DNA of 64,000 nucleotides, taken from assembly GCA_010093605.1 (NCBI GenBank), contig MU004185.1, positions 1,881,334-1,945,333 on the forward strand, in the 5' to 3' direction. The stretch comes from Lophium mytilinum. Its lineage: Eukaryota. The notes beneath the pieces were generated by a model, which saw nothing but the letters and a program-made list of their open reading frames with translations, did no database searches and had not been told where the DNA came from. This document shows, in pieces, positions 12,218-34,890 of the stretch (its first letter is position 1; every line of letters starts with the position of its first letter). Position numbers and translations under genes: made by a program.

Positions 12218-14442
12218 TTAGTACAGTTCAAAGACCTCCGGATCACAGCTTCTAGCTCTCCATTGTTCAACGGCTTCGCCCTTCATCAAGCCAGGAACGT
12301 AACACTCTCCGATAAATCGAAACCTTGTTCCTGATGGCCTCACCACAAATGGGACTTTCCCGCCAAACAAAACCACAATCATGTCGCCTTCTTTCATCGT
12401 CTTCGGACCTATGCCCATTCGGCCATCTTGGGTCAAGAAGAATCTTCTGTCCATGCAAGCACGGACGAAAGCCTGATGGAAGCGGCCTGAATCAACTTTA
12501 CTTGACAATGCTAGTCTCATTCGGTAGGCCATGGATACAGTAGCAATTTGATGGCCCAGGTGCTCTAAGAACCATCGCGTTGCATCCTTTAGAAAGCCGG
12601 ATCTCTCACCCTTAGACACCGATTCGTTGCTTGGCCCTGCAGTCAGAGTGGAGATAAAAGTGTGGAAGGTATCATCCTCCCCGGTCCCCTCAGTTGGCTG
12701 AGGGCGCTTTGCTAATAGATTCCAAGCAGCTCCCACAAAATCACGCTCTTCCTGGTATGTTTTGAAGCCGAAGCCATAACTTGTAAGCTGGTCACCATAT
12801 GCTTTTATGACATCGGCCTGAACTCCCTGCAAGTTGATACCATCTGCTGAGGTGTCGGCGCGCAACGTATCGGTACTCAGGGGCTCGTCGCCATCCGCAT
12901 TGTACGCGTTAGGGTTACGAGAAATTGAGAGAGGCATGGCTGCTTTCTCATAGCACCAATCCGGTACCCACGACGGCCAAGAAGACTGCTCTATGGTCTG
13001 AGTCTCGCCTGCATGGGACAAAACTAGAAGATTCCTGTGCTTTTTTATCAAGAACAGGGCCACATTCCGATATACATTTTTGGTTGATTGGTTGTAGTCC
13101 GGTTTTATCAACGTATATAGTTCCCCGTCGTAGTGTTCCGCGTCATAGTGTTCCACGTCGACGAATTGTCTAGTTTCCTCTGATAGACCGAAGGCTGCGT
13201 AAACCTTATCCACTGGCTGCGTTGCATGTCGATTCCGAAATTCTCTCAGGAGGTCGAGAAGGGGAATCTTGCAGTCTTGAATCTTATCGTCGTGCATCTT
13301 GTCGTCTTGGTTTTTGACGTTGTGGATCTCGTACATCTCCCATGTTGCTGCCGCAGCTGAGACTGGCAAGAGGTCATCTAGTTGCTGCAGTGGGTATTTA
13401 AGAACGGGAGGCACGGCGTATCCCATAGTCTGGAACCATAGGGCGGCCTGACCCAGGGCAGACCATTGAATCTCCCAGTCACCGAGAATTGCTACTGCTT
13501 GCTTTGCAAGAACTGCCTCTTGCACTACCTAGATGTTGAAGCAGTACACGTCAGCAAGTGGCCTGTTTGAGTGTTTGCACCTTTCAGACGCCTTAGTGAA
13601 GCCTGCATTGTCCCAACTTCGTGTTGACAGAGTGCCAGAACTTCATAGTCTGACAACGATGGGTGAAAAGGGATACATGTTGCGAAATGACCTACCCAGA
13701 CACGCTGGAACCAAGGATTCGAGAAAAATTCACGCAGAATGTCCCATTCAGAAGCCGACGGGGCGGGAAATCCATAAGCCATATTGCGATTGACGGAGTC
13801 TTCGGCATTTTTCAGTGACACCAGCCGATTTCGGCCACCTTGAATATTCCTCATCGCTTGTGCAATGAAGGAAAGCACCACCGGCATAACTCCATACCTC
13901 CCAATGTGAGAAGGGCCTACAATATTCAACAAGTGGGCATCCCCTTTGCCAAGCCAGATCTTGACCGTTCCAGCTTTTTCATATATTGTCCCCATCATCT
14001 TGACCTGGCTTTCCCTTTCTGCAACATCCTCCTGGTTTATACAAATAGAATCAATCCATACCAAAGTATGCAAAGTGCTGGCGTTTTCCCGCTGCTCATT
14101 CCGATTCTTCGCGAATTCACCCCACGCGTTCCGGCTGGAGTGCAATACATGCTTCTCGGGCCAAAGGATCACCGAGTCCCAGTTCGGAAACGGGCGCAGG
14201 TGTTTCAATGCATCGTATAGATTTTTGGTGACGCTTTTGGGGACTCCGTTGCATGTGATCGGTTCTGCGGCCATTTCAAGTCCCCAGACGTACGAGATGG
14301 CTTCGTAACTGGGTGGGTCTTCTACATCGTTGACGGTGATTAAAGCGCACTCTATACTCTCCGAAGGGAAGCCAGGTTTGATGGATAGAAGCCGAATAGA
14401 TCTTTGCCCTATAGGGTGGTAGATGGTGTCACGGCTGTGCAT
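12218..14442 (-). CDS. HET-domain protein (HET-6-like), 2 exons: 14442-13696 and 13528-12218
   Basis: SIRLLSIKPG, YEAISYVWG, VTKNLYDAL, WIDSICINQEDVAERESQVKMMGTIY..KIWLG. Intron 13529-13695 (GTAGGT...GCTGAC...TAG) restores WFQRVW|VVQEAVLA. DKVYAAFGL, PSWVPDW, RRFFLTQDGRMGIGP, FIGECYVPGLMKGE. Confidence 0.9.
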
Positions 14443-15278
14443 CTTGCCCGGAGCTAACGAGGCTGTAGAGCAAGAGGAACCGATGACAAAACGAGGTTGC
14501 AAGTGGTAAGTAAATCTTAAAGGACTTACGTCTATGCTTATCTATTAACAAAAGGCGATGATGACATACCGCAGCGTTCGACATGCAGATGAAACTCGTC
14601 TCAGATCCTGTGCCACGGTGGATTTGTTAACGATGATTGGCTCGCACAGTGGACTTAGGGCTGAGCTCAGCCATCGGGCTGAGTATTACGTATGCTGCGC
14701 CCCCTCTTCTGCATTATCGTCTGAAAGCGTATAAGGAGGCGTGGAAACTCTAGGCCGACAAGCTACTCAACTATATATTTCGACTCGTAAGTAGCTTAGT
14801 ACTCTTTGCAGGACTGCAGCTCATTATGAATCTTCTTTCTCGCATACATCATGACGCTAGTCTGCGTAACCTCAGTGAGTCTTCCTCTAATCCCTTTTTC
14901 TCAACAGGTAATTCAAATGAATACTGATCGTGAATCTTAGCTGTCTATGCGCAGTGGTAAGCCCTTATCGCACGCTTTATTTGTCGTGGTTGCAAATTCT
15001 AAATTGCGAAATTTAGGTTATCCCTGTGTGCGATTCTCGCGTGTTGCATTGCAAACATATGGGTGCTAGTCAATATGATGCTATATGGGGCCTACAATCC
15101 TCACCGTCCTCTACCATCACTCTGGCGTGCTCGGCCTATAGTTCAAACGTTGAACGTTTTGTAAGCTTTTGGAATAGTCCAACACTTGTCGTAGCAAAGA
15201 AAGCAAAGGACGGGCGATACAGTTGCTAACACATATCTTGCTACCAGATTCTTCCCGATTGCTCCAATTGCAGTAATC

Positions 15279-15770: not shown

Positions 15771-16387
15771 CTTTCAAATCAGGAGATGCCTGATCATCCA
15801 TGGCGGGACTTTAAGTACAACGAGCAGAGAGAGGCAGGTTTCTTGAATTAGAATATCGACGGGCGAGGCCACTTTGGTACGACCTTCAGATCTTAGTCGA
15901 TATGTAGACCTCAAGTTGCGGAGACCATGCTCGAGCACGGCTGGAGGATGAGATGTAGTCACAAGGGCGAGGAGAATGGATGTTAGATTCAGGTCCGTTC
16001 CAGGAGTTGGCATAAAAGAATCACGTGACCTTTTGAAAACTACTCCCACCATCATCTCTATCCACGTCTTAAAAGAATCCATGGTACCTAGGTACTAATT
16101 ATCGCCCAGAAAAAGCTAGCAATGCCTCGAAAATAAGTACATCTCTCATCTCTCGAGCAACCTTGTCGCCCAGCCGAACGCCACGGCCCGAGCATGCTCC
16201 TTAGGCTACTATCCCCGCCCGGCCCACTTCTACCCCAGACTTCACCCCTCGGTAAACTCGCTGACACTTACTCGACGACATTTCCATGAGTACTCCTCGT
16301 TCTCTGGTATACCTCATGTCCAAGCCCCAAAACCGCTGTTGGCGAGGTGCAGCTTTATCACGCCAAGGAAATCGGCACTCGCCATAC

Positions 16388-17690
16388 ATGAATCCCACCC
16401 CTAAACCTACCACACGCCACGACCTCCCTGATGTCGCGCTAGGAGCATACCTCCTATCTCATCTTCCCGGACTTACTCTACCAATTGTGTCTACAAAGAT
16501 TGGATATGGCCAAAGCAACCCTACCTATTTCGTCGACGATTCTGCAGGCGAGCGGTATATCCTCCGCAAGAAACCAGCCGGAACAATTATAAGCCCTGTT
16601 GCGCATCAAGTCGATAGAGAATTTAGGGTCCTTGAGGCTCTAGGGAAGGTGGATGGGTTCCCAGTTCCCAAAGTTTTTTGCCTGTGTATGGACAACGAGG
16701 TTATAGGAACAGCGTTCTTTGTTAGCAAGAACTGCCCCATCGATGGGGAAGTAGGCTAATGTTTGCGCCTAGGTCATGGAGTTTGTTCGCGGACGCATAA
16801 TCACGGACCCCGATCTCTCTACTCTGAGCAAGGGTGACAGGAGAGCTGCGTGGTTTTCCGTTGTTGAAACGCTGGCATGGTTGCATAGCATCGACCCGGA
16901 CGCAATCGGCCTCTCCGGCTTTGGAAAGAAGACAGACTTTTACAAAAGGCATTGCAACACCTTCTCGCGTATTGAGGCACAACAAGCCAAAGTCTTAGAT
17001 ATCAAGACCAAGAAGCCGCTTGGAAGAGCTCACGACGCATTCGATGAGATCATCGACTTCATCCGAAAGAGGTTACCGGGTGAAAAGACAAGCATCGTGC
17101 ATGGGGATTACAAGTTTGATAATCTGGTCCTACATCCGACTGAACCTCGTTTAATTGCAATCTTGGACTTGGAATTGAGCACGATTGGACATCCGCTTAT
17201 GGATGCTGTGTATGTTGTGGGGCCGTATTGGAACAGAGCGGACGGAGCGCACGCGGGACCTACAAGAGATGATATGGGCGGGCCGGTCTATGAACCTGCA
17301 AATCTGGAAGCAGGGGGCATGCCGAGGATGGACGAGCTGTTGGATAAGTACGCAGAGGTGGCAGGCTGGGACCCAAGGGAAGACAGATGGGAGGTTGCAA
17401 AGGTGTTTCATTTGATGAGGGCAAGTTTGTCCCCAGTCTTTACTCATGCGAGAGAGCGCCTTAGATCGTTTCCAAGACGATTCAAATGAGCACTTGATAC
17501 ACTGACCATGCACTAACATTTCTCACAGGGCGGCACGATATCCCACGGTATTCAAGCCCGCACTATCAGTGGCCAAGCCAGCTCTGAGTTCTCACATATC
17601 TACTTCGAAAACACTCGGCGTAGTCTTGATTCTGCGCTGAGGAAAGTGCGTGATATCAAGATGAAAGAGGGTGAAAAGAGCAGTCTATAG
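16388..17690 (+). CDS. APH/choline-kinase-family phosphotransferase (ACAD10/11 N-terminal-like), 3 exons: 16388-16720, 16773-17420, 17529-17690
   Basis: GYGQSNPTY, YILRKKP, AHQVDREFRVL, VPKVFCLC..VIGTAFF|VMEFVRGRI, IVHGDYKFDNL, AILDLELSTIGHPL, R|GGTISHGIQAR..SGQASS; second intron has a GC donor; protein ends KSSL. Confidence 0.9.
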
Positions 17691-18327: not shown

Positions 18328-21300
18328 CTAGGCTGTGATAGGCGACCAATACCCAAGCACCCTTGGCGCCGCCGGATACCACTCCCCAAACTCCTTCAGC
18401 ATGCCCACCGGCGCCTTTGTCGGCAAATCTGGATATACCCTCCTCGGCCTCACCGCAGCGCTCTTGCTCGTAATCAAATCCTCGTTTCGGCCCCCACTCA
18501 CCCCCGGATCTACTAATTCTAGAAACATGCCCACCACCTCCGCTCTGCGCGATTCAGCAGAGGGTGTGCTCCAAGCGTGAGCGACCTGCTCCAGCTGGGC
18601 TGCTAAATCTTTACCTTCGGGCGCTTTGGTAGGAACGGAGAAGACGGGTGCGGCGACGGGGACGGCGACGGGAGGGTGCTCGATCTCGTCCATGACATTT
18701 TCGCATGCGAAGAGCTCCATGTTGAGGGGTGGGAGGGCGTCGTCCGAGGGCTTGGGCGCGCGCGGCGTAATTTTAAAGCCCATGATTTGGGGAAGTTTGG
18801 CAGGGGGCGCAGAGAGGAGGGTTCGGCTGCCTTGGGAGGGGTCGTCGGAGGAGTTGTCTAAGAGAAAGAACGTTAGAGATTCTGATCTCAACCAAATCCA
18901 GATAGCTTGGACTCTTTCAGACATGCGGGAGATGAATTATTGAAGGCTGAACTTACAACGGCCCCAGAGGGTATTTGGGACATTTTTGACAATACGATCA
19001 AGGCGGAACTCGGGGCTCAGACCGTCTTTGTGTTTGATATTAATAACGAGGTCGGATTTTAGGGATTCCATCAGTTCCATCGGCCGGCCGTAAACAGGCC
19101 ACTGCTCGTTCAGTTCCGGCGGTTTGGCGCCGTTGCAGGTAACTGTTCGAATAGGCACGCGCGCAGAGAGGTCGAATGTGAAGAGCGGCGCGCGAACGAG
19201 CCACGGTGCATCTGCCTTTACATCCACAGCAGGCTTCTTGTGCGATGCGAGCCCGTTCGCGGATAAAAGGTGCCCCGGCAAGCTCTTGATTTCTTCCTTC
19301 GACTTGAGCTGCATAACCATAGCAATGAAATCGCCTAAGCCCACTGGCGGCAATGTGACCTTGTCTGGCCCAAATCGTACGGTGAAGGATATGACAGTCA
19401 AATCTACATGAACGACTCCGGCGAGCGGTGGGCCATGCAAGTGCACCTCGGCGGAGCACTCGCGGTTGATGCTCAGACTAAAGAAGCCCTTCCCGACGGA
19501 GGCGTGGATACTAATCGAAACACCGACGGCGCCTTGGAACTGGAATGGGCTGAAATTGATGAGGAAATCGGCAAAGGCAACGAAGCTAGCGCGAATTACA
19601 GAGGTCGTGAAGATTGCTTCCAGCCGGGCGCCGGCCATGACAACCTCCGGCGTAAGAGCGAAGTAGGCCCCTCCTGTTATACTCAGATGTTCATCGTAAT
19701 GCCAGGAGATTCCGAGACGGGGTGGTACGGGATAGTGGGGAGGAGGCGTGTATGCAGGATGGTAGCCGCCGATCGTGAAGACCCAGTCACCGTCGTGGCC
19801 GGACCCAGCGGAGAAGAATGCTAGGGCGAATCCTCCTGTGATGTGGCAGGTTTCATGTAACAAGAAGGAACGCGGTGTTAATTGTCCTTGCGCCATAAAT
19901 ACACCCTTGCTCGGATCAATGGTGATAGAAATGCCAAGGTCGACGACCAGCAGCTGCTTGCTTGGCTCGGCGCCTTTGGGCATAACAGCGACGGCTTCTC
20001 CAAAGATGCCCAGTTTTGGTGTCGATGAAAGCTCCACCGCTACAACAGCCTGAACCTCGATGGTTTGGAAAGCCTTGGCGCCTAGGCCTGTGAGAGAACA
20101 ACGTGTTAGCTAGGTACAACATTCTTTGACCATGTCTCCTCATGGGTGTGAATATAGAAACTCGCCACTGCTTGAAACCTTCAGTGTGCTGCTGGGATGC
20201 TTGCTTTCAGGTTTTTGAGAATACCACATGGTACCACAAGCTGCGGCAAAAAGATGTATACAAACCCGCAACGACGAATGCTGGTCGAGGATGAAAATGG
20301 GTAGACCTACCTGCCGCGAGCCATATCGAGCCGTCCTTTGGAGTCATCCACGGCGGCCCTCCAGGGCCTCCATGAGTAAATGACATCAGCTGAGCCATAG
20401 GGCTCACCTCCGGCTCTACCGACCCTGAGCTGATTCCCACAAACGGGAATTTTGACACCTCCGACACGGCGGGAAATCTAAGTTCCGAACCGAATCCGAA
20501 GCCACCGGTGACACCGTTGACCTCCGCGAAACCAAACTCCATAAGAGGTCCGTTCAGCTTCGCGAACACAAACATGCTCTTATACGTAGCGAATTCTTGG
20601 TAGGCGCCGGCCGCGAGAAAGCTGTATATCGCCATGCTGATGTTTATGCCGCCTGCAAAGCCGCGGCACTCGGATGTGTTGATGGTCTCGAAGAAGCCCG
20701 CAATCACTGCCGGTGGTCTGCTGAACTCAACTGCCATACCAGAGAGCGAGAAGGATGGTTTGATGTTGAGAAGGTCAATGGGTTTCTTGACGTTGGATGT
20801 GTCCAAATCGATTGAGAAGCCTATTAGTGTCATGCCCACCGGCCCAAGGTGGACGACGGCGTCTAAGATGATGTTTAGGGTATGTCCGTGGAACTTCAGC
20901 CCGATGTTGCTTATTGCCAAACTAGAAGTTTTCTTATGCATTGGCGCCATGGATGCCTTTTTCTCCCCAGAATTGGATACCTTGGGAGGGTTTGATGGGG
21001 CTGGCTTGGTTGGTTCCGGTTTCGTAGGGGCTCCAGGGTCAGGTTTGGGGTTGGGATTCGGTTGCTTGGTAGCTTTGGGCTGAGCTGAAAAGGCATGGTC
21101 GATAACAGCCTCAGGCTTCCCATCCATATGTGCCACTATCACAAAATGACAGCCCACAGAGACCACAATATCTGTCGGTAGTCTTTTCGTTGGGTCGACT
21201 GTATCCTTGTAGAAAAGCGGATCTTTCTTCTTCGTGAATACTGCAACGTTCAACACCTCTGCTTCGTCTCGTGTTAGCCCTTTGTTCACCCAGAGGAAGT

Positions 21301-24300
21301 CCATTTGATCAAACGGTTGTTCGAGTTCGCCGACCACGGGTAGCTCAGGGACATTCGGTAGCTTCGCTAAGCTCAGGCGTAGTAGACGCTTCGGTACGAC
21401 CGATTTGGACCTCTTTGTGTGATCGTGAATCTGAGAGTACGTGAAGTGGATTTTGTCTAACGAGATTGTAAGAGAGAAGATGACGTGGTCAGCGCTCCCT
21501 TTAGCTCTGCCGCAGTACAGTTCTACGGACAGTTTGTCTAGCGGGATAGCCATCTGGCCGATGAATTCCGGAACATCAGTGATAGAGTCGTCCAGATCCG
21601 ACAGGATTTCCAACAATGTGATCTCTTTCAGGCCAGATGGGGTCTGTTTTAGCTGTGCAACGATGCTCCAAACATCCCCATTGTGCTTATATTCGAGGTC
21701 AAGCTCCAGCGGCCCGACAATCATGATGCCTTTCATGACCAGCGCACTAGGCTTACTCTTCTCGTACTTGTAGAGCAATGACACTTTCGGAATAACGATG
21801 CTGCCCAACATGTCTATGACTGCGTCTCCAGGGCTATTGAGATCAAAGAACGAGTGAAGGTTTGCGAATTGGAGGTTCTCAGCAGCCGCTTCAATAGCCC
21901 ATGAGCTAGGTTCTGAAGTGTATGCGATTCGAACGGTTAAGGTCACCGCGTCCCGCACCGTGATGTAGTAGGCGGGAGGGTAGATTTTCACCACGCCTCT
22001 GAATTCCAAGGAGAATGATTTTTTCCCGAAGTCGTACGACGCGAATAGTGACAATGTGTCGAGCAAAATTTCTGGAATACCACTTGTTGTTGAATGAGGG
22101 CCACACTGGACTTCACCAAAAATCGATATTGAAGTCGTGGACCCCATGTGGACTCGAATGCTCGCCTCGGTGACTTCGTCGGGGATGCCCTCAGGCCAGT
22201 TTTCGATGGTACCTCCAGGCATCAGATAGCGAAGCTGTAGATGATCCAGCACCTTCTCATCCAACGGTTTCAACTCATAAAAATCCTCACGGAATGGATT
22301 AAGCTTGCGCGGTACATCTGCATACACCACTGAGAACGCCGTCCACAAAGATCCGTCGAATGTCAAACTACCGGGCTGCCACTTGAGAGATCCAAAAAGG
22401 GCAGCGCTGCTTCCATTAGGGACACCAAATGCAAGGGGGATTTCGAAGTCGACTTTGACACCTTGTAGGCTTTTGCCGCCTTCGCCCAGACTTAGGACGA
22501 TCTGGCGGAGTGAGACCGGCACAGCGCCAGCCAAATCTGTGAGAGATCTGCTAAGATCCAATATGAAGGACTCATCGAAAGTATCTGTCTTGTGGCTGCT
22601 TCCCGAGGCCAGTTTCTCGTTTAGCCATTTAAACAGAGCTTTGATAGGGTTCGTCCGAGTTTTCAGCTGGACTATCAAGTCAAGACCGCTTTCGTGTACG
22701 CACACAATCGCTTTGATATCTAACGACTTGTTCTCTCCAAGCTTCCATGACGCTGTTGTCTCAAACGACATACTAGAAGAAGTAGTGATAGAGGGCTGTT
22801 CTCCCAAGTCAATGCCTTCGCAGTGCTTTCTTCCAATAACACACATTCGGGAGATGGTAAGATTATCCAAATAGCCGGAAATAAGGTCTTTGATCGCAAG
22901 GGAAGCTCCACTCGGTAAGTCAACGTCCAATTCAAGCCTCAGAACTGTGTAGCCTCGGCGATAGGGCAAGAACCAAACACCTGACCGAGAGGTGCTGTTA
23001 CCAGGCGCCTTCAGCGGAACAGTGGATAGCAATAGCTTGGCCCAGGCCGGCCAAGGCATATCGATGAGAGAGGCAAGATCTGCGACTGTGATGGGACCTC
23101 CACGCACCTCTTCGAGGGCGAAGACCAGGCCGCCCACCTTTTCATAGTAGGCAACCGAAGCAGCCGTTTCCGCAATCTCCTTGCCGAATTGGACTTCGTG
23201 GGCCTTCCGATCTGTAGTGAAAAACAGGGTATGCGGGTCTGAGGAATCCTTCAGATTTGCGACGGGAGCGCGAACATCCAATGTGATCCTGGTCAACGAC
23301 ACATCGTCTCCGTCGGCGAGAGCGCCGTCAAACCTGAGTTGGTGCAAATAGATGGTGTCGATAAACCATGCGAGGCCTGCTATCTTTTCATCGGCGGAGC
23401 AAAGGTTGCTGAACTGCGGTGCTCCTGGTTTAATTTCCAAGGCGATCTTTTTGAAATAATCGACAGTCCAGCTTTGTAGGGAGTCTACTCCATCTTTTTC
23501 CACACGCATACTCTGCAGAGCGTTCATTTTCATCGTCGTCCCCATGGTACTTTTGTGAAGCACGATGTTCTGCGGAGCACACAGGGAACATTGTCAGTGT
23601 ATCAGACTAGCGCGACAGAGCCAGAGGGAAGGGCTTACCGAGAATTGCTGCACTTTTCCTTCAGTCTTCACCTTCTTCTTGGCAAGTTCCGGGTCTCTTC
23701 GATCATCGGTTTTCTCCTTCTTTTCCTTCTTTAATCTGGCCGCTTTCTGTGTCCGAGTTTCAAACTCCCTACCCATCTCATTCTCGGTATCATTAGACTT
23801 CAATTCTTCAAAGACACCCCAATACTCTGAGAGCACCTTCTTAGTCTTATCCAGTCGCAATTGGTCCTTCTTTTGCTGGGCAAGCAGCGGATCTCGGTCT
23901 TTTGAAACATGCTTCTCAAGAAACCCCAATGCCTCGAGTTTCTCCCTTTCTCTTTCCAGCCTTTCCTCCAGCTTTTTCGGAATGTCAAAGAGTTCCTCAG
24001 TTTTGACAGTAACACCTTTAGGCCCATATTGCCGATCTGGCCGGGTGCGGTTCGCAATTGGCGTGTAGTTTGGATCGTCATGAACGCAGCAGGCGTCAAG
24101 GGCATCATTGTCGCCCTTCCTAGTCGCTACGAGGCGGATGTATTGCACTCGCGGGGAAGGATGCGTCTTAGTTGTTGAGCCAGTGATAACAGTTATTGGT
24201 TGTGGCGCTGTATTTGGAGAGCCGTACGCTTTCCACAGCGGAACGGTATCCTTGATGACCTTTCTTTGTGCTTTGAGCAACGCTTTCTCTTCTTCGGCAG

Positions 24301-25751
24301 TCAGATTCTGGAGATCGACATCTTCATCATCGTCATCTTGCAGTATATCCTTTTTCGAAGAAGTTTCGGCCATCTTCTGCTTCAATTTCAATTGCTTTGC
24401 GGCCTTGGCGTTCCCGGAATCTAGAGCATGAGCCTTCTTAGCAACTGGTCTCGTTTTGGCTAAGTCTATACATACTCAGATGGCTTGGATTCAGATCTGT
24501 GGTGCGAATTTTTGAGTCTTTCCCCATCTGGAGCCAATACGGATATCTTGTGGCAAAGATTCGTGGGTTACCCAAACCTCGTTGTGCAGGCGAGTTCAGA
24601 TACTTGAAAACTCTATCTAGGACAGAATGCGCTAAAGATGGATAATTGATAAGATAGTTGATCATGTTGATTGGAAGCAAATAGGGTAAGAACTCACTCG
24701 GATGGCCATGCTTATCTCCTGCCGACATAATGAAATATCCTGGAGACAAGCCGAATATTTCGACTGCCGTAGACCTTTCCGACCCGTGATGACTGGCTTT
24801 GATGCATTCGACTGATGAACCTGTCAAGAACGCGACCAGCCGACTTTCTTGAAGTGTCTCTGCGTCTCCTCCTGTATAAAGTGAGATTCTTGGTTTCGGC
24901 TGATTCAGCCTTTTAGGCCATACGATGATACACATCAGGGAAGACTCATTCAAGGTAACATTAGTTTTTGTCGATTCGAGGCCGAGGAAGCTGTCATCTA
25001 TTCCCACGCAGAGAAACGCCGGATAACCATTTTGGGTTACGCCAGCAACAGGCTTCAAGGCGGTAGATTGACTCAGCAATTTCTCCAGTGTATCGATCTC
25101 GTCCCACTTCGCCGTCCCTGCAAGACCTTTGCCGGTGAATAAATCTTTGCCAAGACATCCGGTTCCTGTGCATACATTGCAAATCGCATTCGTCGTGAAT
25201 TCTTCCTCAATCATGCCGTCGCCATGTTTGAATGAACCTGTTATCTTGAGGAAGCCGGTTTCCTCATCCGTGTCTTCGAAGGCGTACTTCATATCTGACT
25301 TATTTGTTTCGGTCTTGGGGCGATAAAAGACGGTTTGCAGGCGAAGGGGATCACCTTGGGCTTTCTGGGGGTCGTATTTCATATATTTTGATTCAACAAC
25401 ACCCTTTCCCTTTTTCTCGCGGTATTGTGCGGCTGCATCTTCTGCAATTACTCCCATGGAACCTCGGAAATGATCGCCATCCCAATGCGAGACGACGATT
25501 GCATCGAATCGTAACTGTATATGGGCGCCATTCAGCTGGCCTTTGCTGTAGAGCGTCTCGATGTTGAGAATCGTCGCCTTCAGGTCCTCCTCCACATAGC
25601 CATCTTTTCCGCCATCAACGAGAACTGCGTGCTGAATCACTCCTATGGATGTAGGCGGGGAAGCTTCTACCAACAGATGAATTGCGGCATCTCCAGCTTC
25701 AACGTTGATGAAGAACGAATCGATCCGGATTTCCTTTGCGTAATCCACCAT
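18328..25751 (-). CDS. Giant (about 2303 aa) protein: ComEC-like MBL-fold hydrolase, charged linker, beta-rich body and DUF6603-like domain; 6 exons: 25751-24698, 24631-24476, 24420-23639, 23569-20311, 20087-18957, 18857-18328
   Basis: Five GT-AG introns (24632-24697, 24421-24475, 23570-23638, 20088-20310, 18858-18956) join five track ORFs in frame; 6912 coding nt. MBL motifs NVEAGDA, VLVDGG, SHWDGDH, GGDAE, KASHHGS, SAGDKHGHP. DUF6603-like motifs (recalled, not searched) VTGGFGFG, WLAAGL, CHITGGFA, GDWVFTIGGYHP..PPHYPVPPRLGISW, GGAYFALTP. Confidence 0.85.
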
Positions 25752-26716
25752 CTTGTAGACGATGCTCGAGGGAAGATAGCGATAGCACCTGTGCCTAATT
25801 GAGCCTTTAGTCGTTATATGTTGAGTGCGATGTTACCCTCAAAATATAGCCATTAGAGAACCGGATGACTTCAAGATTAGGTAGCCTAGCTGTTGTCACA
25901 GTCTTTCACACTCGACTTGTCGAAAGAAGGGAATTTCTAAGTCACTGCGTTCGAGTACACTGACATAGGCCGACGTTCGTCAGAGCTCCAGTCATAGTCA
26001 GCCTGCTCATGAAGGCCGATCCGCTCGATGCGGTTCGCTGCTGCGAATGAAACATCAGCGCGTCGACTACTGCAGCTACTGCACCACGGAATTCATGGCG
26101 ATAACATTTCTGCATGGTGATAGAGCGAAGCGACGCGTCCAGCCCGCTCGGTACAAGGCATCATGAAAAGTGGCTTGCGTAGTTGTCCGCGTCGACGTCG
26201 AGAGAGACCCCTTTTGAGGCTGGTGGGCCTACAAACGACTGATTCAGAGACAAAAACAGTCTAGATTCACTCCGGGGCGTGCTCAAGAGAGTATGGTGGA
26301 GTGGAGTTGAAGGCAGCTAGAAAGACGGCTTGAGGTGTGCGGATGCAGGGGAAGAGAAGGCTGGCCCGGGCGGTGCCCGTTCCGTGTGTGGTTGGATGCA
26401 AGGATAAGCGATGTATATTAGACTGTTTCTGAATTTGTCGCCATTATGTGTAAGGTTTCTCGGGACGTTACCCAATGGAAACCGGCGGTGATTACATAGT
26501 AGACTGGATTCAAAATATTGATTTATGTGACGGCGCACATGTAGGCTATGCTGATGAAAAGCACGAAGTTTTCAGTTGATTAGGTCACGTGTCGCGTTTT
26601 CTTGAAGGACTTCGCATATGTTCCATAGATAACAAGACTATAGAACGATGGTTTTGAGACCAAGTTAAGCTAAGTATGTGATGTATCCAAGTGTACGAGT
26701 TATTGCAACTAGAATC

Positions 26717-29700
26717 CTAAACCCCAACTGGTGGAAGCTCGTCCTTCACGGTCTTTGTCATCCTCATATACCCCTCTACCAATTCGGTGGACGCAGATGC
26801 ACCGATGTCAAGCATCTCATCCACAATTTTGATCCTATACTCATCCCATGTCTCTTTGAGCTCTTGATCATCGGATCCTCCTTCAAGAAGGCGAGGTTGT
26901 AACCAAGCCCAGTCTTCCAATCCAGAGAATGCAAGCTTCACCGCTGGCTTATCTGGGGCAACCGAAACGGAACTGGCTCCAACGGCAGGTGCGATACTTG
27001 GATCTCCTTCGCCTCTCTGAGCTTGCACGCTCACCGTGGGCAACGGCACCGCAGGCACAAGTAGAGGTCCGAGTTTGAAGGCCGCACGCATCTGCTTTAG
27101 AGCATTGTTTACCGCCCATTCAGGCAGCCGGAGTTCTTTGGTTGGGAGAACGTTTCCTGTATATGCGTGGATTGGAGTGATCGGATCAACAATGACGCTG
27201 AAGAGTTGCAAGCGCTTCCAGTGCTCCGTCTGCGCGTCTTTGGTGTCGGCCCCGAGGAAGTACGGCTTCAGCTTTGGAAACTCGCGAATAGGAACTGCAG
27301 GATTGTCTCCGATTCTCTGAAAGGGTTCTGTGGGGTTGTAGTCGTCGGGAATGCCGAAAGATGTGAATATCTCCTTGATCGTTTCTTCTGGTTTAAAGTA
27401 TCCGACAATACCATCAAAAGCTGCATTGGCATCTCCGATCTTCAGGGCAAATTCATAATCCAACAATTGACGCTCTGGAGGCGAGTTGAATAACAAAGAC
27501 TGATTTTGCATGGGAGGTACCGCCAGTTCAACGGAGAAGCCTACGTCTACTAAGCAGAATGGCTTTCCCATTGTCGCAGGGAGAAAGTCAGGGTAGTCCG
27601 CGGAGGTTGATCGGGCCGAACCGAGTGCATTCGTGACCATACGAAAGAATCCTTCGGCGAATGAATACGAAGTCAACTGATGTAACAGACTATGAAGACG
27701 GGGTGAAGCTGTAGGAAGAGGGCCATTGCTGGGCCGGAATGACACGATGGTCGAGCTGGCTCCCGGCGCAATGAAGACTTCGCGGAGGAATCCACCATCT
27801 GGATTGAAAAGCTGAATCGAATAATCGAAGTAGTTGACGAGCAACCATCCCCAAATTGGATTCTCCCATTCGGTTACTGGTCTGTACGTAGATTTTGCCT
27901 CGTCTTTCGTCACGAAGTGTCCGTTGAGGCGAGCGTCTTGATTTATTCTTGGTGCTATCTGGAAGAACTGACAATAACCTTCATCCTTGTCTGCTTTGAA
28001 GACGGTGTTAGGATAGTAACTGCCGGAAATGGGTTCGCAGGATAGCTGTGGAGAAGTGCATGGATATACGGCAGTTGCGGGAGTTCCATCCAGGCGCTGT
28101 GGCTCGATTGCTGTCACCACTTGACCAAATTTGTCGACGATGTGAAGCTTGGTAAGCCTTAGTTGGCCATGAGTGACTGGCTTGAAAGGATGCTGACTTT
28201 GGCTTGAAGATGACAGCTTGGTTCCAAGTCCGTAAGGAGCCATATCGGTAGCAGAAGACAGAGCGTCAAAAACATCTTTCTTCATTCCAAGAGCAGCCAT
28301 GTTGTTCTGTTCAGAAGGCGAAGGTCCTGGATGAGCACCTCGGAGGAGAGTCACGAGGTGATCATTGACTCCCGCTAGAGGCGCAGAGAAAAACTCCAGC
28401 TCGGCCAAATTCTTCAACAAGGCGTCTCGATCGGAAGGCGTGAGTGGACTACCTCGAAGTTGCGATGATACAGTCTGGTCAAAGAATTGCTTGATCTGCT
28501 TCTTTAGAATCTTTGAGGCCTGGGTTCCAATAATATTTCGACCATTCAGTACTCGGCAGTCCGGATCGAGATGTAGATCGGCCAAAACAGTACCAGCTTT
28601 GATGGAGTAACTCCAAATCCCCTTCTCGTCTTTCTGAAAGTCCCAGTACTTCCATGGAATATGATGATATTCGGCACTCCATTCCATATACAATGGAAAC
28701 CAGCCCTGGGTAGCTTTGAAATCGTCGTCGTCGCCATTGTACATGGGTAAAGGCCAAGTTGGGCTTGAACGTGCATATTTGCAATCTGCCCATTCAGCTA
28801 AAATACGACCAACGGCAGTGCTGACTTCCGGGAACTCAGGAAACGATCGGGTAATCACATTCAAGAAGTCTTCGTAACCTGATCCGGCATTGAAAGCCCG
28901 CCCGAGGTTGCTTGTCTGAGGCGTAGTTGTGATCTGGGACAACAGCCTAACGAGCGCAGTTTTCTCGGCGTTGTTTGGCCAGCCCGATGCAACGCCCGCG
29001 AACAAAATAGTTGGGTCGCTGTGAGTCGTGAAAGGGGTCGATGCCACTCGTTTTATCGCGAAGCCCCGTGTCTTGAGATCTTCTTTCAGAGGCTTCATGG
29101 CGGACTTGGCGTTTGACAGAGCAGCACTGAGCGAGTCATAGCGCTTCATCTCAATGTCTATGGCCTCTTTAATCGGTGACGTGAAGACTTCTCTTTGAGA
29201 TTCCGGTAAATTTCTTGTTTCAACGGACTTCCACCAATTGCAGTAAAAGCATGAAAGAAGGTGCCTTGCTTCGCGGCTACAGCCATCCACTGTGCGTTGC
29301 AGTGCATTTAGCTCTTGCAAGAGGGCCAAGTCCGCTGGCTTTGGTGTAGGGCGTTTTACCACATTTGGAGCTGCTCCTAAGGTATTCTTATTCTTGTCAT
29401 AGGACGCGATATCCTTAGCTTCGGCTTCTTTTTGGAAGGTCCAAAGTCTCTCCCCTCGATGTGACACCCAATCACTGCTGCCCATCATATCAGTCGCCTT
29501 CATTTGAGAGTCAACGTCGTCATCGTGAGATATCAAGGCTTCGATTCTACTCAGAAGATCGGCTATGCTGTGAGTTGTGTCCTCAGGCTTCGTGATGCTG
29601 ACGCGAAGGTAGGCGAACAAGGCATCCAAGGTACTAGTCCCTACTGCAATTGGGTGGGATGCAAGTATCTTCTCCTGGAGTTCGATGGATGGGGCCTTCA

Positions 29701-30916
29701 GCTGCGCAGAGCTGTGCCGTTGAAATAGGACATTGTTGAGGGTTCCGTGACATATCATGCGGCCGGCAGACCCTGCTGTTGCTTTTAGAAACGTTGACGG
29801 ATCCGGACAGGTCGGCGTTGCTGTTGGGTTCAACTTGAGATGGCACGATTTCAAAAGGTCTTCGTGACTTGGGCTGATAGTAGCAGGCTGCTCTTTAAAG
29901 ATAAGTGGATCGTCTGTGGCATCGGCATGAAACCCGATTACCACGTAAGAAAGCGTCGCAGCAGCGATCGGATCCTTGTACGAGGAAAACCCAAGGTCGT
30001 CATGAATCGAGAAGACACTGGTGTTGTGGGACTGATAGTCTGCAAAGAGCTCGTTGGCAGACTCTACGACGGTGAAGGGAGTGCTTCGGGGTGCAGAGGG
30101 ATTGACCTCGTAATCCTTCAAGAACGTCTTGAGACCAATGAAAATTTCTTGCTGCTCCGCGAGTGAACGGCTTGGATCGATGAACGGACTCGTAATATTT
30201 TCAACATCTGGCCGGCTGAGATGACGAAGGTCACTGTCGTTGATGTTTCGGATGCGGTCGCTCTCAACCACGAAGCCCTCTGGTGCCGGCGGGGAGGCCG
30301 TGTCGGTGCAGAAACGGAAGACCAACCATCGATTTGGGGCAGGGCGAAACTGTATGGCATTTTGATCAGTACACTGCGTGCAAGAAGAAGAGGGTAGAGA
30401 TGATACAATGGGCTCGTGGTCAGCCGTATCGTGATGCGTGAAAAATACGTAGGTATGGAAAGTACAGGATAGAATAGCTAAAACGATGTATTATACGCGT
30501 ACAGGGACAGCACTGACCGTTAAGACGTCTGCGGTTGGCGCCGCAACGCTATGCGTCGGATATCCCGCGTCTAGCTGGGCCTGCGCATGGTCGCCAACTG
30601 CACTACGCGTTGCCAATATGCCGGCGCGATACACCTGCGGAAGACACCAGCTGAGGTAGACACCCATCCGCTCCTTTCGGACTTCGCCCGTTGTGAGATC
30701 CATGAACCGCGGATTGTGTTTGGCCTTCAGCGTCGACACTGAGACATCGAGGTCGTCCATAACATCGTGTTTGATGAGCCCAGTGTCGGCTCTGAGGGCT
30801 CCATAGTTGGGTTGAGAAAGAGGTGCAATACGGTATTTACTGTCTCCAAAGTCTTCTGAAACGACGAACGCGTGGAGCACAACCGGAACACAAACGATAT
30901 CCAAAGGAGCCTCCAT
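26717..30916 (-). CDS. Large uncharacterised cluster protein A (about 1343 aa), 2 exons: 30916-30518 and 30349-26717
   Basis: Intron 30350-30517 (GTCAGT...CTGAT...CAG) gives T|FRPAPNRWLVFR; 4032 coding nt. Motifs GVYLSWCLP, VVESD, WFPLYMEW, HGQLRLTKLHIVDKFGQ, PRINQDARL, NPIWGWLLVN, DGIVGYF, VDPITPIHAYTG and WAWLQP recall bacterial neighbours of DUF6603 genes. Confidence 0.85.
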
Positions 30917-31453: not shown

Positions 31454-34400
31454 ATGCTTTCAGCAGTCAATCCGCGCTTTCGTGCGCAATTGGAAACCGC
31501 AAATGTCGCAAGCACTAGCTTGGACTCCCACGATGCAGAATTCTTCTCCAGCCAGGCCGCAGCACTGGCAGCTGGAAACTACGATATCGATGTCGTCCAG
31601 ACTGTCACACATCCAAATCCCAGCACTCTGAATGAAACACAGATCCTTAAAACAAAGAGGGGGTTCAACGTTGTTGGCCCAAAGTTCAAGCTCGAAAATG
31701 CAGATATTCACAGCGTGTACCCGGCTCCTGGTCATAGTGACTACTGGAATACCCTGCCACACATCGTCTTCAACGATTCTGCTCTTCCATGGGAAAGGAT
31801 TCCCGGTCAGCAGTATGTAGCATCGAAGGGAGTAAACCGTGTTCCATGGCTTGCTTTGCTGGTTTTTACTCACGATGAGTTGGAAGCTGACCCGGGGTTG
31901 CTTGGGACTAGCGGCAGTCAATCAACGACTTCCTGTACGCGAACCACTGCTGACGAGCTGCGCGATTCTGTTCGGATTGCCCATCCCCTCAAGTCACCCG
32001 ACTTTGAACCCGATTTCGAAGATACCGACATCGTCGATGTACTCATCCTCAAATCGAATCTATTCAAAGCACTTTTCAGCGAGTACGGACCCAGTGCCAC
32101 GACCCCTACCTGGAATGCCAAAGCCAGTATAGATCGCTATCAATATTTGGTATGTAACTTTTTGGTTCAAATATCTGCGACTCAAAAGTGAAATACGATT
32201 CAGCTCGTGGCTGAAGAAGCTCTACTGTTTGACTGGCGTTCATGTAAATGTGTACTAACGCGTTGAAGGCACATGTTCGCAAAGTTCATACCGCCGCCAC
32301 AGCCGGAGCTCAGCCAGGAAATCCCATGGACTCATTCAGTGTTGTCATCAGCTCTCGTACAGGTCCTCCTGCCATCTCTCATCCTACGGAACTGGTCGCG
32401 CACCTTGTTTCTCTAGAGGGTGTTGGAGGCATGTCAGTAGATGGGTTTGAAAACGTAGGCCTGGTGTCGTTATTCTCTTGGAACTGGACAGCGGCACCCC
32501 CCGACCGTATGAACTTCATACACACTATGCAGACGCTCGGTCAGAACGTTCAACCTCTGCGAGTCCCGGACGACAAGCTCCTACCCCCATCCAAAATTGA
32601 AGGTGGAAACCCGGACCTAAAGACATGGCTACATGCCAGACTGAGGGACGGTTATACGCTGAAAAAGCACACCATGTTGTCCGGCGAAAGAACAGTAGCT
32701 TTATTCCGAGGGCCGCTGTGTCCAGCGACTCCATCGCGCTCTACCATAGAGCCATACTCTTTCTGCGGTAACGACTTACAGATCTTGGACCCTCTGCTAG
32801 GCCTGATGGATATTTCTTACAGTGTAGCTTGGGAACTAGGCAAAACACTCGCACTCGCAGATCGGGATTTCTCAAGCAGCCTGTTACACCTCCGGGGTGA
32901 TATTCACGATAACGCCCTGAAAGCCGCCAAAGCTGCAAATGATCCTGGAGTTGTGACGACTTCCATTCTTCTTGACGGCTTGAAGCCTATAGTTGACAAA
33001 GCCGCGACTTTCGACAGCACGAAGGATCTGTCAAAGAAGAATATGGTCAGCCGATGGTGTCAGCAGTCAGGCACCTACAGCAGACAGCGAACTACGCCTT
33101 TGACGAGCGAACATATTGCCATTCGCGCAGATTATGTCGAACAAGTAGCGAACACGGTGAAAGATTACGCGGGGACGACCTCGAAAGAGAGTACGATATA
33201 CAACGAAATTAATACACCCAAAAACCACGAGTGGGCGGCTGTCCTGAAATGGGTGATGGACAAGTTGTTCCTCTCCGGGCTACCAGTCCATTATCTGGTT
33301 CATGATCCCATTGCCCTACCTATGGAGAGTATCCGGACCTTCACGATCGACCAGACTTGGGTAGAATGCTTTCTCGATGGTGCTCTGTCGCTTGCAAATC
33401 ATTTCGATAAGGATGATGACGTTATCCGCAGAGAAATCAAGAACGCTATCAACGAGTACCTCGGAACGCCTTTGACTCAAGACGGAAAGCCACCTCGTGT
33501 ACCGCGCTGGGGCTTCATCATTCGTAGTATTGCCATCAAAGCATTTCCGGATCTGAAGGTTGAAATCGCCCTCACCGAAAAAAGCAGCGCTCGCGATCCT
33601 CTCGTCATGAAGCACCTCTCGGATGACACTTTGATGTGTCTCTTCGATGATTTAGACCAGGCTGGAGTACACACGGTTATGCTGTCTCGACCCGCCCATC
33701 ATCAAAGCTTTGCTTGCGGTACATGGCTCGACGACGAATCCCTTCATATGGAGTTCCGATTCGTGCCAAATCAGCCCGGAGCAACGCTGAAAGGCTTGAC
33801 TGGTCCGAGAGGGGTCGGCCTTGTATGGTCGAAGCCAGAGCAGAATTTACCGGACACCGCACTAGCGCCCGTATACGACTGGACCAACAGGACGCTGATA
33901 TTCCCAGAGTATGCTAAACGATGCATAGAGACGCTAAAGAAGCCGGGCTTCTTCGACTGGGACCTCGGAAAGGGCTTCCCTAGCTCGATCGTAGGCTTGC
34001 AGCTTAGCACCGGCATCTTCCAGCTACCGATTGAGGTCAACACCGGCAGCTTCCATGACGGTGGCCCTCGACAGATAAAAGTTCCGGCTGCTCCTTTGAT
34101 ACCCGCGCCTATCTTGAAGGACTTTCCCAAGGCTCCTAGTCCACCATCCTTATTCGTAGAACTGGAATCAAATCGCAGGCCCCTCATACCCGCAGCACGA
34201 TCCGACTCTAGCAAAAAGGGTGGAGCTCGTGACTCACCCAGCGTTGTCCAAGATTACGAGTATCCTACCGACTGGACGGACGAAAATGTTCTGAAGAAGC
34301 CATGGGATGCTTTCATGACTCTCGACCTCGCGTTGTGGCCTCTACACGCCAAACGTGGAGACCCTCTCCCAACTGCCTCAATTTCCCCCATTGACTTGGT

Positions 34401-34890
34401 CGTTAACGTCAAAGCAAATATGAATGTACATGGGGACAGCTGGATGGGTGATATGGAGCTGATATTCCCACTCCACGATCCACATGGCCCGGAGGGTTTC
34501 AAGAAAGGCATGTTGACATTCGACAGTAGCGCCGCCTGGCCGACGGTGCGTGGCTTGGGCCGCGGTTGTCGCTGGCTATACGATACTCGCCTGTCAATGG
34601 TCCCAATGCTGAAAGAGCAGACAGAATACCGTAGTGAGACGGCTTACTACCCTCAGGAGCCAAAGAATCTAGCGTTCATTGTGCGGATCAGGCGGCGGAT
34701 CAATATTTACGATGAAGAACGGGAGAATGTGGATGCGAGCTTTTTGCTCAGTGGGGTTAGGGTAGATGGTGTGCCGTCAGCCACGGAGACGAATGTCGAC
34801 TTCGTTTGTAGATGGGCGCATACGAATATTACGGGCTGGCCGGACTGTGAAATCGCAGCAGGGCTAATTAATGTAAAGTTTTCGGCGTAG
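31454..34890 (+). CDS. Large uncharacterised cluster protein B (about 1105 aa), 2 exons: 31454-32149 and 32269-34890
   Basis: Intron 32150-32268 (GTATGT...ACTAAC...AAG) gives YQYL|AHVR. Motifs IHSVYPAPG, LPHIVF...LPWER, PWLALLVF..DEL, AHLVSLEG, GERTVALFRGPL, DISYSVAWELG..LALAD, LPMESIRTF.ID..W...FLDGALS, GFIIRS. Start codon uncertain. Confidence 0.85.

Follow-up and report, generated by a model that had tools for sequence, protein, structure and literature searches.

The window analysed here, 64,000 nt of the Lophium mytilinum genome, contains a gene for a giant protein of 2303 residues which, in our judgement with about even chances, acts as the large subunit in a conflict system of three proteins, derived from prokaryotes and carrying a tethered DNase-like effector. 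The system would be the fungal form, with introns in its genes, of a prokaryotic one composed of a DUF6603 protein, here the giant, and of members of the families that we call F1 and F2+F3. The giant gene is already known, while the fungal three-gene cluster appears to be undescribed; full-text literature searches returned no paper naming DUF6603, PF20248 or AOL_s00006g513.

The giant gene and its modular product

The protein is encoded on the reverse strand by one spliced gene of six exons and five introns (Table 1). All five coding introns have GT..AG ends and CTAAC/CTGAC-like branch sites, and the exons sum to 6912 nt, stop codon included. An earlier note on this DNA had proposed that five ORFs splice into one 2303-aa protein, and the single spliced gene, the five junction peptides and the exon sum all recur in the spliced model; the count of five does not, because the first ORF listed hides a 66-nt intron that is in frame and free of stop codons, which makes six exons. 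The spliced product is identical, at every residue, to the NCBI entry 'hypothetical protein BU16DRAFT_579855 [Lophium mytilinum],' and a 7787-nt contig of a public run, with 0 differences to the locus, lacks exactly the five coding introns and joins the MBL and DUF6603 parts; the RNA label of that run is a guess, and a contig is no proof of one continuous transcript and does not give its ends. The gene model as such is nothing new, since it is already in GenBank. The Pfam match to DUF6603 spans the 223-nt intron, exon 4 covering profile positions 1-195 and exon 5 positions 199-499. Neither tRNA genes nor Rfam families nor tandem repeats were found at the locus.

Table 1. Positions of the giant gene, of its modules and of the adjacent partner genes, numbered from the first base of the window.
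Feature	Position	Strand	Remarks
Giant gene	18328..25751	-	2303 aa
Exon 1	25751..24698	-	
Exon 2	24631..24476	-	
Exon 3	24420..23639	-	charged linker, aa 404-664; poorly conserved
Exon 4	23569..20311	-	
Exon 5	20087..18957	-	
Exon 6	18857..18328	-	
5' leader intron	25787..25834	-	48 nt, GT..AG; absent from the 7787-nt contig
Intron 1	24697..24632	-	66 nt
Intron 2	24475..24421	-	55 nt
Intron 3	23638..23570	-	69 nt
Intron 4	20310..20088	-	223 nt
Intron 5	18956..18858	-	99 nt
ComEC-type MBL head	24476..25751	-	aa 1-403; exons 1-2, including the 66-nt intron
Middle module	20960..23569	-	aa 665-1534; begins at the first base of exon 4
Pro-rich hinge	20984..21064	-	aa 1500-1526
DUF6603 (PF20248)	19171..20941	-	aa 1541-2056; interrupted by intron 20088-20310
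C-terminal region	18328..19170	-	aa 2057-2303 and stop; contains the 99-nt intron
Partner gene 1 (F1-like, BU16DRAFT_524851)	26717..30916	-	1343 aa; exons 30916..30518 and 30349..26717; intron 30517..30350
Partner gene 2 (F2+F3 fusion)	31454..34890	+	1105 aa; exons 31454..32149 and 32269..34890; intron 32150..32268

From the N-terminus onward, the head is followed by a charged linker, a beta-periodic middle module, a Pro-rich hinge and DUF6603, which is the order that had been described before. The linker, then called K/E/D-rich, consists of K, E, D and R for 39% of its residues, and the hinge lies inside the range of 20980-21080 where it had been placed. The alternating hydrophobic beta pattern claimed for a region of about 800 aa is borne out in the 870-aa middle module, whose beta-type periodicity is well above that of shuffled sequences (0.85 vs. 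0.68 ± 0.03, family average) and is accompanied by that of DUF6603 (1.03 vs. 0.74 ± 0.05, family average). DUF6603 itself is recognized with 458.8 bits against a gathering score of 27 (E 2.7e-137; profile 1-499 of 502). Of the C-terminal region, the first ~75 aa are conserved, bacteria included, and the remainder is Pro-rich and variable.

The middle module, the hinge, DUF6603 and the ~75 aa beyond it form a conserved core, the mark of a family spread over Pezizomycotina. At E ≤ 1e-3, a search with the 870-aa middle module retrieved 397 representatives, of which 305 reach ≤ 1e-10 and 81 reach ≤ 1e-30; DUF6603 follows the module in 22/22 long matches scanned and, among 20 clusters looked up, all 12 with a named organism belong to Ascomycota. 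Named fungal relatives include Trichoderma reesei and Podospora, both genetically tractable, Fusarium oxysporum and the nematode-trapping Orbilia. No match came from genome contigs searched with the single protein, and the ESM Atlas search gave bacterial clusters only, or no usable match. In the tree, fungal and bacterial sequences fall on the two sides of one branch (support 100). Nothing in the 3300-aa bacterial giants corresponds to the middle module, no pair exceeding 30% probability when it was aligned by hhalign with their first 2100 aa; in bacterial forms of ~1600 aa it has only weak, colinear matches (E 1.7e-6 to 2.4e-3).

The distribution of the family in fungi is patchy, with several paralogues in some species, for example two in Nemania serpens. 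Headless forms are common among the relatives, and the gain and loss of the head on the tree takes at least 19 changes, part of which may reflect split gene models. None of 28 fungal relatives has a different Pfam domain in another N-terminal extension, so the heads are not visibly polymorphic. At the other end of the chain, one relative from a lichen fungus terminates in three H-type lectin domains.

A ComEC-type metallo-beta-lactamase head

The N-terminal 400 aa contain all of the metal-ligand motifs of ComEC-type MBL enzymes: motif II reads H89-W-D91-G-D93-H94 and is followed by N268, D296, H321/H322 and H350. These residues are invariant in 12/12 named headed relatives, and in a set of 46 heads they occur in 41-46. 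According to PMC8579336, the HxDxDH motif II and the motif-III Asn are hallmarks of ComEC, and the head resembles ComEC/Rec2 (PMC8579336; 9vc6, 30bt) in the HxDxDH motif with Asp replacing His, in the Asn of motif III, in the Asp of motif IV, in the His of motif V and in the final GHP. A head profile built from 12 relatives and compared with the Protein Data Bank placed ComEC/Rec2 entries in the top six of ten matches, the best being 9vc6_A (1.7e-12), with 30bt_A at 2.1e-8, while the head as a single sequence reached only E 0.52 to ComEC MBL domains. The MBL-fold enzyme of the earlier note is thus, by motifs and profile match, an MBL-like domain, which can be specified as ComEC-type. Pfam Lactamase_B (PF00753) remains below its gathering cut-off of 22.7, with 21.8 bits on exon 1 and 17.9 bits on the whole protein; judged by sequence, the head is a divergent member of this family. 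Unlike ComEC/Rec2, it stands outside any membrane DNA channel, as the N-terminal part of a soluble giant, and its motifs II and IV lie ~100 residues further apart, the additional residues being variable. The spacing of motifs II and III ranges from 141 to 213 aa among the heads and is poorly conserved, the other motif spacings being tight.

The head also gives weak local matches to the defence MBL models LmuA, Avs1a and RTasMBL, that to Avs1a covering only aa 315-351 with 35.1 bits against an NCBIfam cut-off of 420. Gated MBL pro-nucleases of bacterial immunity have two gating insertions (PMC12799240). With the Avs1a/HamM, Lamassu- and DRT-associated pro-nucleases (PMC12799240) the head would share, as far as sequence can tell, the use of a ComEC-like MBL as effector module, and its two charged stretches that are poorly conserved relative to ComEC recall the gating insertions. 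There are also differences: the head is far under the family cut-off, it is fused to the giant whereas the bacterial enzymes are encoded by a separate upstream gene, and the fungal cluster has no trypsin-like or caspase-like protease partner. Neither a protease Pfam domain nor a trypsin-like GDSG/TAAHC motif was found in the three cluster proteins, and the analogy with gated pro-nucleases consequently lacks its activator.

A three-gene cluster with a bacterial counterpart

Two partner genes, divergent from each other, lie beside the giant gene, a context of decisive weight that is missing from the earlier note. The bacterial F1 profile matches partner gene 1 with E 1.9e-49, and the spliced partner gene 2 is matched by the bacterial profiles of F2 (1e-51, across the splice site) and F3 (1.7e-17); the profiles of the further bacterial families F4 (~237 aa, upstream) and F5 (propeller plus Ig, downstream) had no match in the six-frame translation of the window. 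Linkage is also found elsewhere in fungi: in Nemania sp. NC0429 the giant and an F1-like protein have consecutive accessions on a single contig of 394,045 bp, and five further giant/F1-like pairs are on equally sized contigs. Among 26 fungal-type metagenome loci, an F1-like gene is present in nine, two of the 26 also having F2F3 within flanks of 10 kb, and it is found in seven of the eight loci that offer at least 5 kb ahead of the first giant match; three loci (L091, L120 and L128) have no F1-like gene despite at least 3 kb in that position.

In bacteria, the clustered loci of at least 20 kb contain the giant in 49 cases, F1 in 45, F2 in 29, F3 in 28, F4 in 25 and F5 in 23, with median intergenic gaps of -4 to 3 nt. 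This cassette is chromosomal and occurs across many phyla; unlike typical mobile defence islands, it is absent from viral contigs (0 relatives in IMG/VR) and rare on plasmids (9/72,556 records). Plasmids of Paenibacillus and Streptomyces carry compact cassettes, in which the DUF6603 protein is accompanied by an F2-F3 fusion and by F1, with no F4 or F5 match among the genes tested, in the vicinity of CATRA/CHAT genes or of genes for VgrG-like, PAAR-like and GH-E nuclease proteins. Genes immediately upstream of the bacterial giants include Lipase_3, Hcp and MBL genes.

The fungal cluster shares with the bacterial cassette the full-length DUF6603 and the ~75 aa after the domain, as well as the F1, F2 and F3 homologues that adjoin the giant gene, and its content is the same three genes, with fused F2-F3, as in the compact plasmid cassettes. 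It differs in that its genes bear introns and are arranged divergently and in tandem with no operon, in that F4 and F5 are missing, and in that the fungal giant has the 870-aa middle module and the linker-fused MBL head. Profile searches of the Protein Data Bank with F1, F2 and F3 gave nothing (best E 0.13), and no recurrent Pfam family emerged at E ≤ 1 from 48 F1-F4 members. A TssF/TssG-like nature of F2/F3, guessed from protein sizes, was dropped, the Pfam searches having given no sequence evidence for it.

A possible conflict system and its alternatives

In the reading that we favor, the three proteins would assemble as one complex, docking on the DUF6603 part, the sole part of the giant that bacteria have in common with it. 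The head would be a Mn2+-dependent DNase-like effector, held to the complex by the flexible charged linker, and would be an accessory that the core can also lack. The core would control the time or the place of nuclease action, and gating of the nuclease, by analogy with the bacterial Avs1a/HamM pro-nucleases, may fall to the long, variable stretch inserted after motif II and before motif III. Such a system would serve biological conflict, namely immunity, allorecognition or antagonism; this role is read from context only, because the core proteins match no entry of PADLOC, PHROGs, Pfam or the Protein Data Bank.

Among the alternatives, it is unlikely that the cluster specifies an exported or surface machine, akin to phage-tail or secretion devices, delivering the nuclease (in bacteria, lipases) into other cells. 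An Hcp-family gene directly upstream of the giant in five bacterial loci (3/3 tested against Pfam are Hcp), a Lipase_3 gene at the same position in three loci, the Sortilin/BNR and Ig-like domains of F5 and the terminal lectin domains of the lichen-fungus relative would suit such a device; nevertheless, Hcp is confined to a minority of loci, the core proteins have no PHROGs match and no relatives in IMG/VR, no signal peptide was found on the fungal cluster proteins and, since nothing is conserved past F5 in five genomes, a set of sheath, tube or ATPase genes is missing.

A housekeeping DNA-processing complex, in which the ComEC-type nuclease would take part in repair, DNA uptake or turnover, seems to us about equally unlikely. 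It is true that, among characterized proteins, the head is closest to ComEC, a nuclease of DNA uptake, that the cassette has a wide, chromosomal distribution and is absent from phages, and that the GC3 of the cluster genes is like that of the neighboring genes. Against this role stand the patchy distribution with its paralogues, the lipase, Hcp and conflict-gene neighbors in bacteria, the two HET-domain genes in the region of the window, and the headless forms, which are common, so that the nuclease is dispensable to the core.

We regard it as very improbable that, as the earlier note suggested, the beta-rich middle of the giant forms a lipid or cargo groove of the TamB/AsmA/VPS13 type, or a Tc/RHS-like cocoon around a cargo. 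The significant beta-type periodicity of the middle module and of DUF6603 and the large chain devoid of recognizable globular families speak for it, but at E ≤ 0.1 Pfam gave no match to the AsmA, TamB, VPS13/BLTP, RHS or Tc families, the head is the only part of the giant for which profiles retrieved relatives from the Protein Data Bank, and neither a signal peptide nor a clear membrane anchor was found, the top 19-aa hydropathy (1.78) falling within a conserved DUF6603 strand; moreover, the conserved F1, F2 and F3 partners would be left unexplained. Finally, that the giant is a stand-alone multidomain enzyme with irrelevant, incidentally clustered neighbors is the least probable of these readings. 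The order and orientation of the partners do vary among fungal loci, but the same three families are linked in many bacterial phyla, on plasmids and in fungi, with F2 and F3 fused in some cases and separate in others.

The conflict system proposed here can be compared with the fungal immune and cell-death clusters of prokaryotic derivation, such as NLRs with HeLo/amyloid partners and gasdermin with its protease (PMC12881547). Like them, it is a small co-inherited cluster with bacterial counterparts, and it lies in a variable region holding HET-domain genes; unlike them, it has no NACHT/NB-ARC, HeLo, gasdermin, CHAT or subtilisin domain. A bolder version, rather unlikely in its full extent, would see in the Pezizomycotina machine a new arm of innate immunity or of allorecognition, in which the complex of DUF6603, F1 and F2F3 senses non-self and unleashes the gated ComEC-type DNase, perhaps through a cut in the charged linker or in the variable loops, destroying the DNA of the affected compartment. 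The same version, with the same reserve, holds that the three-gene cluster preserves in Pezizomycotina a type of protein machine, derived from prokaryotes, that is as yet uncharacterized in any organism.

The association of DUF6603 with F1 and F2/F3 extends over many bacterial phyla and is found, with introns in its genes, as a cluster in different classes of filamentous ascomycetes. Within it, the head offers a usable handle on the DUF6603 machine, as a ComEC-type nuclease whose predicted activity can be assayed, and the cluster is a further candidate among the prokaryote-like conflict modules that fungal genomes are increasingly found to contain.

Gene model and anatomy of the giant protein

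The window, whose DNA is fungal, carries on its minus strand a gene of six exons (18328-25751). Its five introns are short (66, 55, 69, 223 and 99 nt), run from GT to AG and have branch sites of the fungal type. As an earlier note had proposed, splicing gives one protein of 2303 aa (the giant, P0001) from 6912 nt of exons, and every junction peptide predicted there is reproduced exactly; where it counted five ORFs there are six exons, since the first intron, 66 nt long, contains no stop and keeps the reading frame. The product is identical at every residue to the GenBank entry 'hypothetical protein BU16DRAFT_579855 [Lophium mytilinum]', so the gene model of this Dothideomycete was already public. 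Its annotation places it in Pfam DUF6603 (in UniRef, 'DUF6603 domain-containing protein'), a family named in no publication that we found. The Pfam match continues across the 223-nt intron: exon 4 ends at profile position 195 and exon 5 resumes at 199. The locus occurs in a single public sequencing run (X1), as one 7787-nt minus-strand contig with 0 differences, which omits exactly the five introns and a sixth GT..AG stretch ahead of the coding region (Table). This contig joins the MBL and DUF6603 parts, for which separate genes had been considered as the alternative; that run X1 is RNA is a guess, and a contig neither defines transcript ends nor proves, by itself, that a single transcript exists.

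The charged linker and the Pro-rich hinge that had been read from the sequence could both be located, and the alternating hydrophobic pattern is real, since family-averaged hydrophobic moments give the middle module (0.85 vs 0.68±0.03) and DUF6603 (1.03 vs 0.74±0.05) a beta-type periodicity well over that of shuffles, with no alpha-type excess in either. Neither a signal peptide nor a convincing membrane segment was seen. The 870-aa middle module matches 397 cluster representatives at E≤1e-3 (81 at ≤1e-30), and in all 22 long matches scanned it is followed by DUF6603, 7 of them having a weak N-terminal Lactamase_B match. Two consecutive pieces of about 220 aa within this module (P0001 aa 855-1084 and 1085-1304; window about 21650-23000) are weakly similar when their profiles are compared (hhalign probability 40%, E 3e-4, 155 columns) and may be an old internal duplication.

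Features of the giant gene, its product and the surrounding window
Feature	Position	Strand	Details
5'-leader intron	25787-25834	-	48 nt, GT..AG; removed in transcript-type X1 contig
Head	aa 1-403		exons 1-2; MBL-type
Head motif II			H89-W-D91-G-D93-H94
Head motif III			N268
Head motif IV			D296
Head motif V			H321/H322; then H350-P351
Linker	aa 404-664		exon 3; 39% K/E/D/R; poorly conserved
Core	from aa 665		starts at first codon of exon 4
Pro-rich hinge	aa 1500-1526
DUF6603	aa 1541-2056		458.8 bits
F1-like gene	26720-30490 (profile match)	-	directly upstream of giant; annotated 1343-aa BU16DRAFT_524851; one intron
F2-F3 gene	31454-34890	+	one intron; 1105 aa
HET (heterokaryon incompatibility) domain ORF	3075-4406	-	Pfam, E 1.2e-21
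HET domain ORF	13525-14502	-	Pfam, E 5.7e-25
RVT_3/RNase H-like fragment	5389-6240	-	weak; near AT-rich window start
APH-type phosphotransferase	16286-17489	+	adjacent ORFs matching Pfam profile 4-74 and 75-233
MFS/TRI12-type transporter	35648-37708	+
Protein kinase	39198-40124	+
Fungal-specific transcription factor	45309-46883	+

A ComEC-type head that is present or absent

Alone, the head scores 21.8 bits against Pfam Lactamase_B, just below the cut-off of 22.7. With a profile built from 12 named relatives, the best six of ten matches among solved structures are all ComEC/Rec2 (9vc6_A at 1.7e-12; 30bt_A at 2.1e-8, the alignment covering both halves). The motif residues do not vary among the 12 named relatives, and 41-46 of 46 heads have them. 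A published account describes the ComEC nuclease domain as Mn2+-dependent and sets it apart from canonical MBLs by two replacements of His, with Asp in motif II and with Asn in motif III (PMC8579336). Motifs II and III of the head are separated by a long spacer of variable length (141-213 aa) containing two charged stretches of poor conservation, and the remaining spacings are tight. ComEC has about 100 fewer residues between motifs II and IV. This ComEC-type assignment of the head, with its variable insertion, is new in this analysis.

Among 155 fungal-type proteins with a Met start, an MBL head was found in 46 of the 47 with an N-terminal extension of 450-1000 aa and in none of the 70 with one shorter than 150 aa. 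Six metagenome loci are headless at the DNA level, with no room for a head. The tree requires at least 19 switches between headed and headless states, some of which may represent split gene models. In 28 proteins with different N-terminal extensions no other Pfam domain was found, so the choice in fungi is 'MBL or nothing' rather than a polymorphic set of heads. The head thus appears to be an add-on to the core of the fungal family, a dichotomy of headed and headless forms that is new here. At the other end, a headless relative from Xylographa trunciseda (P0099, 2378 aa) bears three H-type lectin domains and another protein (P0164) has a C-terminal extension of about 850 aa, so that the tail is the family's second variable end.

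A three-gene cluster and its bacterial counterparts

At least 517 DUF6603 relatives exist in prokaryotes (one genome per species scanned). Clustering the ORFs of loci of at least 20 kb gave, among the matches listed, the giant family (~3300 aa, 49 loci) and partner families F1 (~1317 aa, 45), F2 (~664 aa, 29), F3 (~343 aa, 28), F4 (~237 aa, upstream, 25) and F5 (propeller/Ig, 23). Median intergenic gaps are -4 to 3 nt, and no gene conservation past F5 was seen in the five genomes compared. Among profiles made from these bacterial families, that of F1 matches the gene next to the fungal giant (E 1.9e-49), and those of F2 and F3 both match a single further gene, over aa 28-454 of the spliced product (E 1e-51, across the splice site) and aa 547-692 (E 1.7e-17), respectively; F4 and F5 have no match in the window. 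The fungus thus keeps a three-gene cluster, with the F1-like gene upstream of the giant on the same strand and the F2-F3 fusion divergent from it. Compact cassettes on Paenibacillus and Streptomyces plasmids have the same three components: a DUF6603 protein (~850-1090 aa), an F2-F3 fusion (714-748 aa) and F1.

The linkage recurs in other fungi. In Nemania sp. NC0429 the giant and F1-like accessions are consecutive on one 394,045-bp contig, and in five further pairs the source contigs are of equal size within each pair. Among 80 metagenome loci 26 are fungal-type, that is, contain the middle module; an F1-like gene occurs in 9 of these 26, in 9 of the 12 with at least 3 kb ahead of the first giant match (L091, L120 and L128 have none) and in 7 of the 8 with at least 5 kb. 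F2F3 accompanies it in two, and partner orientation differs among loci, as expected for a eukaryotic cluster. In Fusarium oxysporum f. sp. albedinis, the F1-like member (P0233) is called 'Reducing polyketide synthase PKS1', probably a mis-annotation, because nothing in the F1-like family backs the name.

Organism names were available for 12 of 20 giant-family clusters looked up, and all 12 are Ascomycota. The names are Podospora, Nemania, Orbilia/Arthrobotrys, Dactylella, Xylographa, Fusarium oxysporum, Lasiosphaeria, Trichoderma and Neonectria. With Rhizina (Pezizomycetes) and Orbilia (Orbiliomycetes) the range reaches early-branching classes. In DUF6603 trees a single branch with support 100 separates the fungal rows from the rest (103 vs 26 rows; 35 of 84 rows), and any bacterial sister group receives a support of only 3. 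In the 3300-aa bacterial giants nothing corresponds to the middle module; its last third gives weak colinear matches (E 1.7e-6 to 2.4e-3) in bacterial forms of ~1600 aa, immediately ahead of DUF6603. Contamination or recent transfer of the cluster is argued against by its introns and by its GC3 (0.51-0.61 vs 0.53-0.69 in neighbouring genes).

Around the cluster, the two flanking HET ORFs suggest a variable, non-self-recognition-rich genome stretch. The first 2000 nt are AT-rich (GC 0.31 vs about 0.5 elsewhere) and, with the RVT_3/RNase H-like fragment, are possibly degraded repeat or transposon remains. Since the APH profile is split across adjacent ORFs, these are probably one gene with an intron; the kinase, transporter and transcription factor downstream are ordinary fungal genes.

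A putative role in conflict

The core proteins have no sequence match in Pfam, PHROGs, PADLOC or solved structures, so function rests on context. Among 50 ORFs scanned, the slot directly upstream of the bacterial giant holds Hcp at five loci (three Pfam-confirmed), MoxR ATPases at two and an MBL with the canonical HxHxDH motif at one (L028:7386-9095); a class-3 lipase replaces F4 at three (L029:8224-9816, L040:7418-8986, L060:7248-9842). Within 15 kb of the plasmid cassettes lie VgrG-like, PAAR-like and GH-E nuclease genes (Paenibacillus, L165) or CATRA and CHAT conflict genes with transposases (Streptomyces, L166). These slot occupants and plasmid neighbours, together with the HET genes of the window, support a conflict role, as do local matches of the head to the defence MBL models Avs1a, LmuA and RTasMBL. 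One report shows ComEC-like MBLs to be DNases that act as gated pro-enzyme effectors in AVAST and Hachiman, and finds their pairing with a protease gene in Lamassu and DRT systems as well (PMC12799240); according to another, immune modules of fungi usually comprise two or three clustered genes that have relatives in prokaryotes (PMC12881547). Against this role count the Avs1a score of the head, far under the model cut-off, the lack of any protease partner found for the fungal cluster, the rarity of the DUF6603 cassette on plasmids and its absence from the viral contigs searched. Weighing these points, we therefore give an even chance to the reading, based on context, that the giant is the large subunit of a three-protein, prokaryote-derived putative conflict system with a tethered DNase-like head. 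What is new for the family is the fungal three-gene cluster itself and its correspondence to the compact bacterial cassettes whose F2 and F3 are fused.
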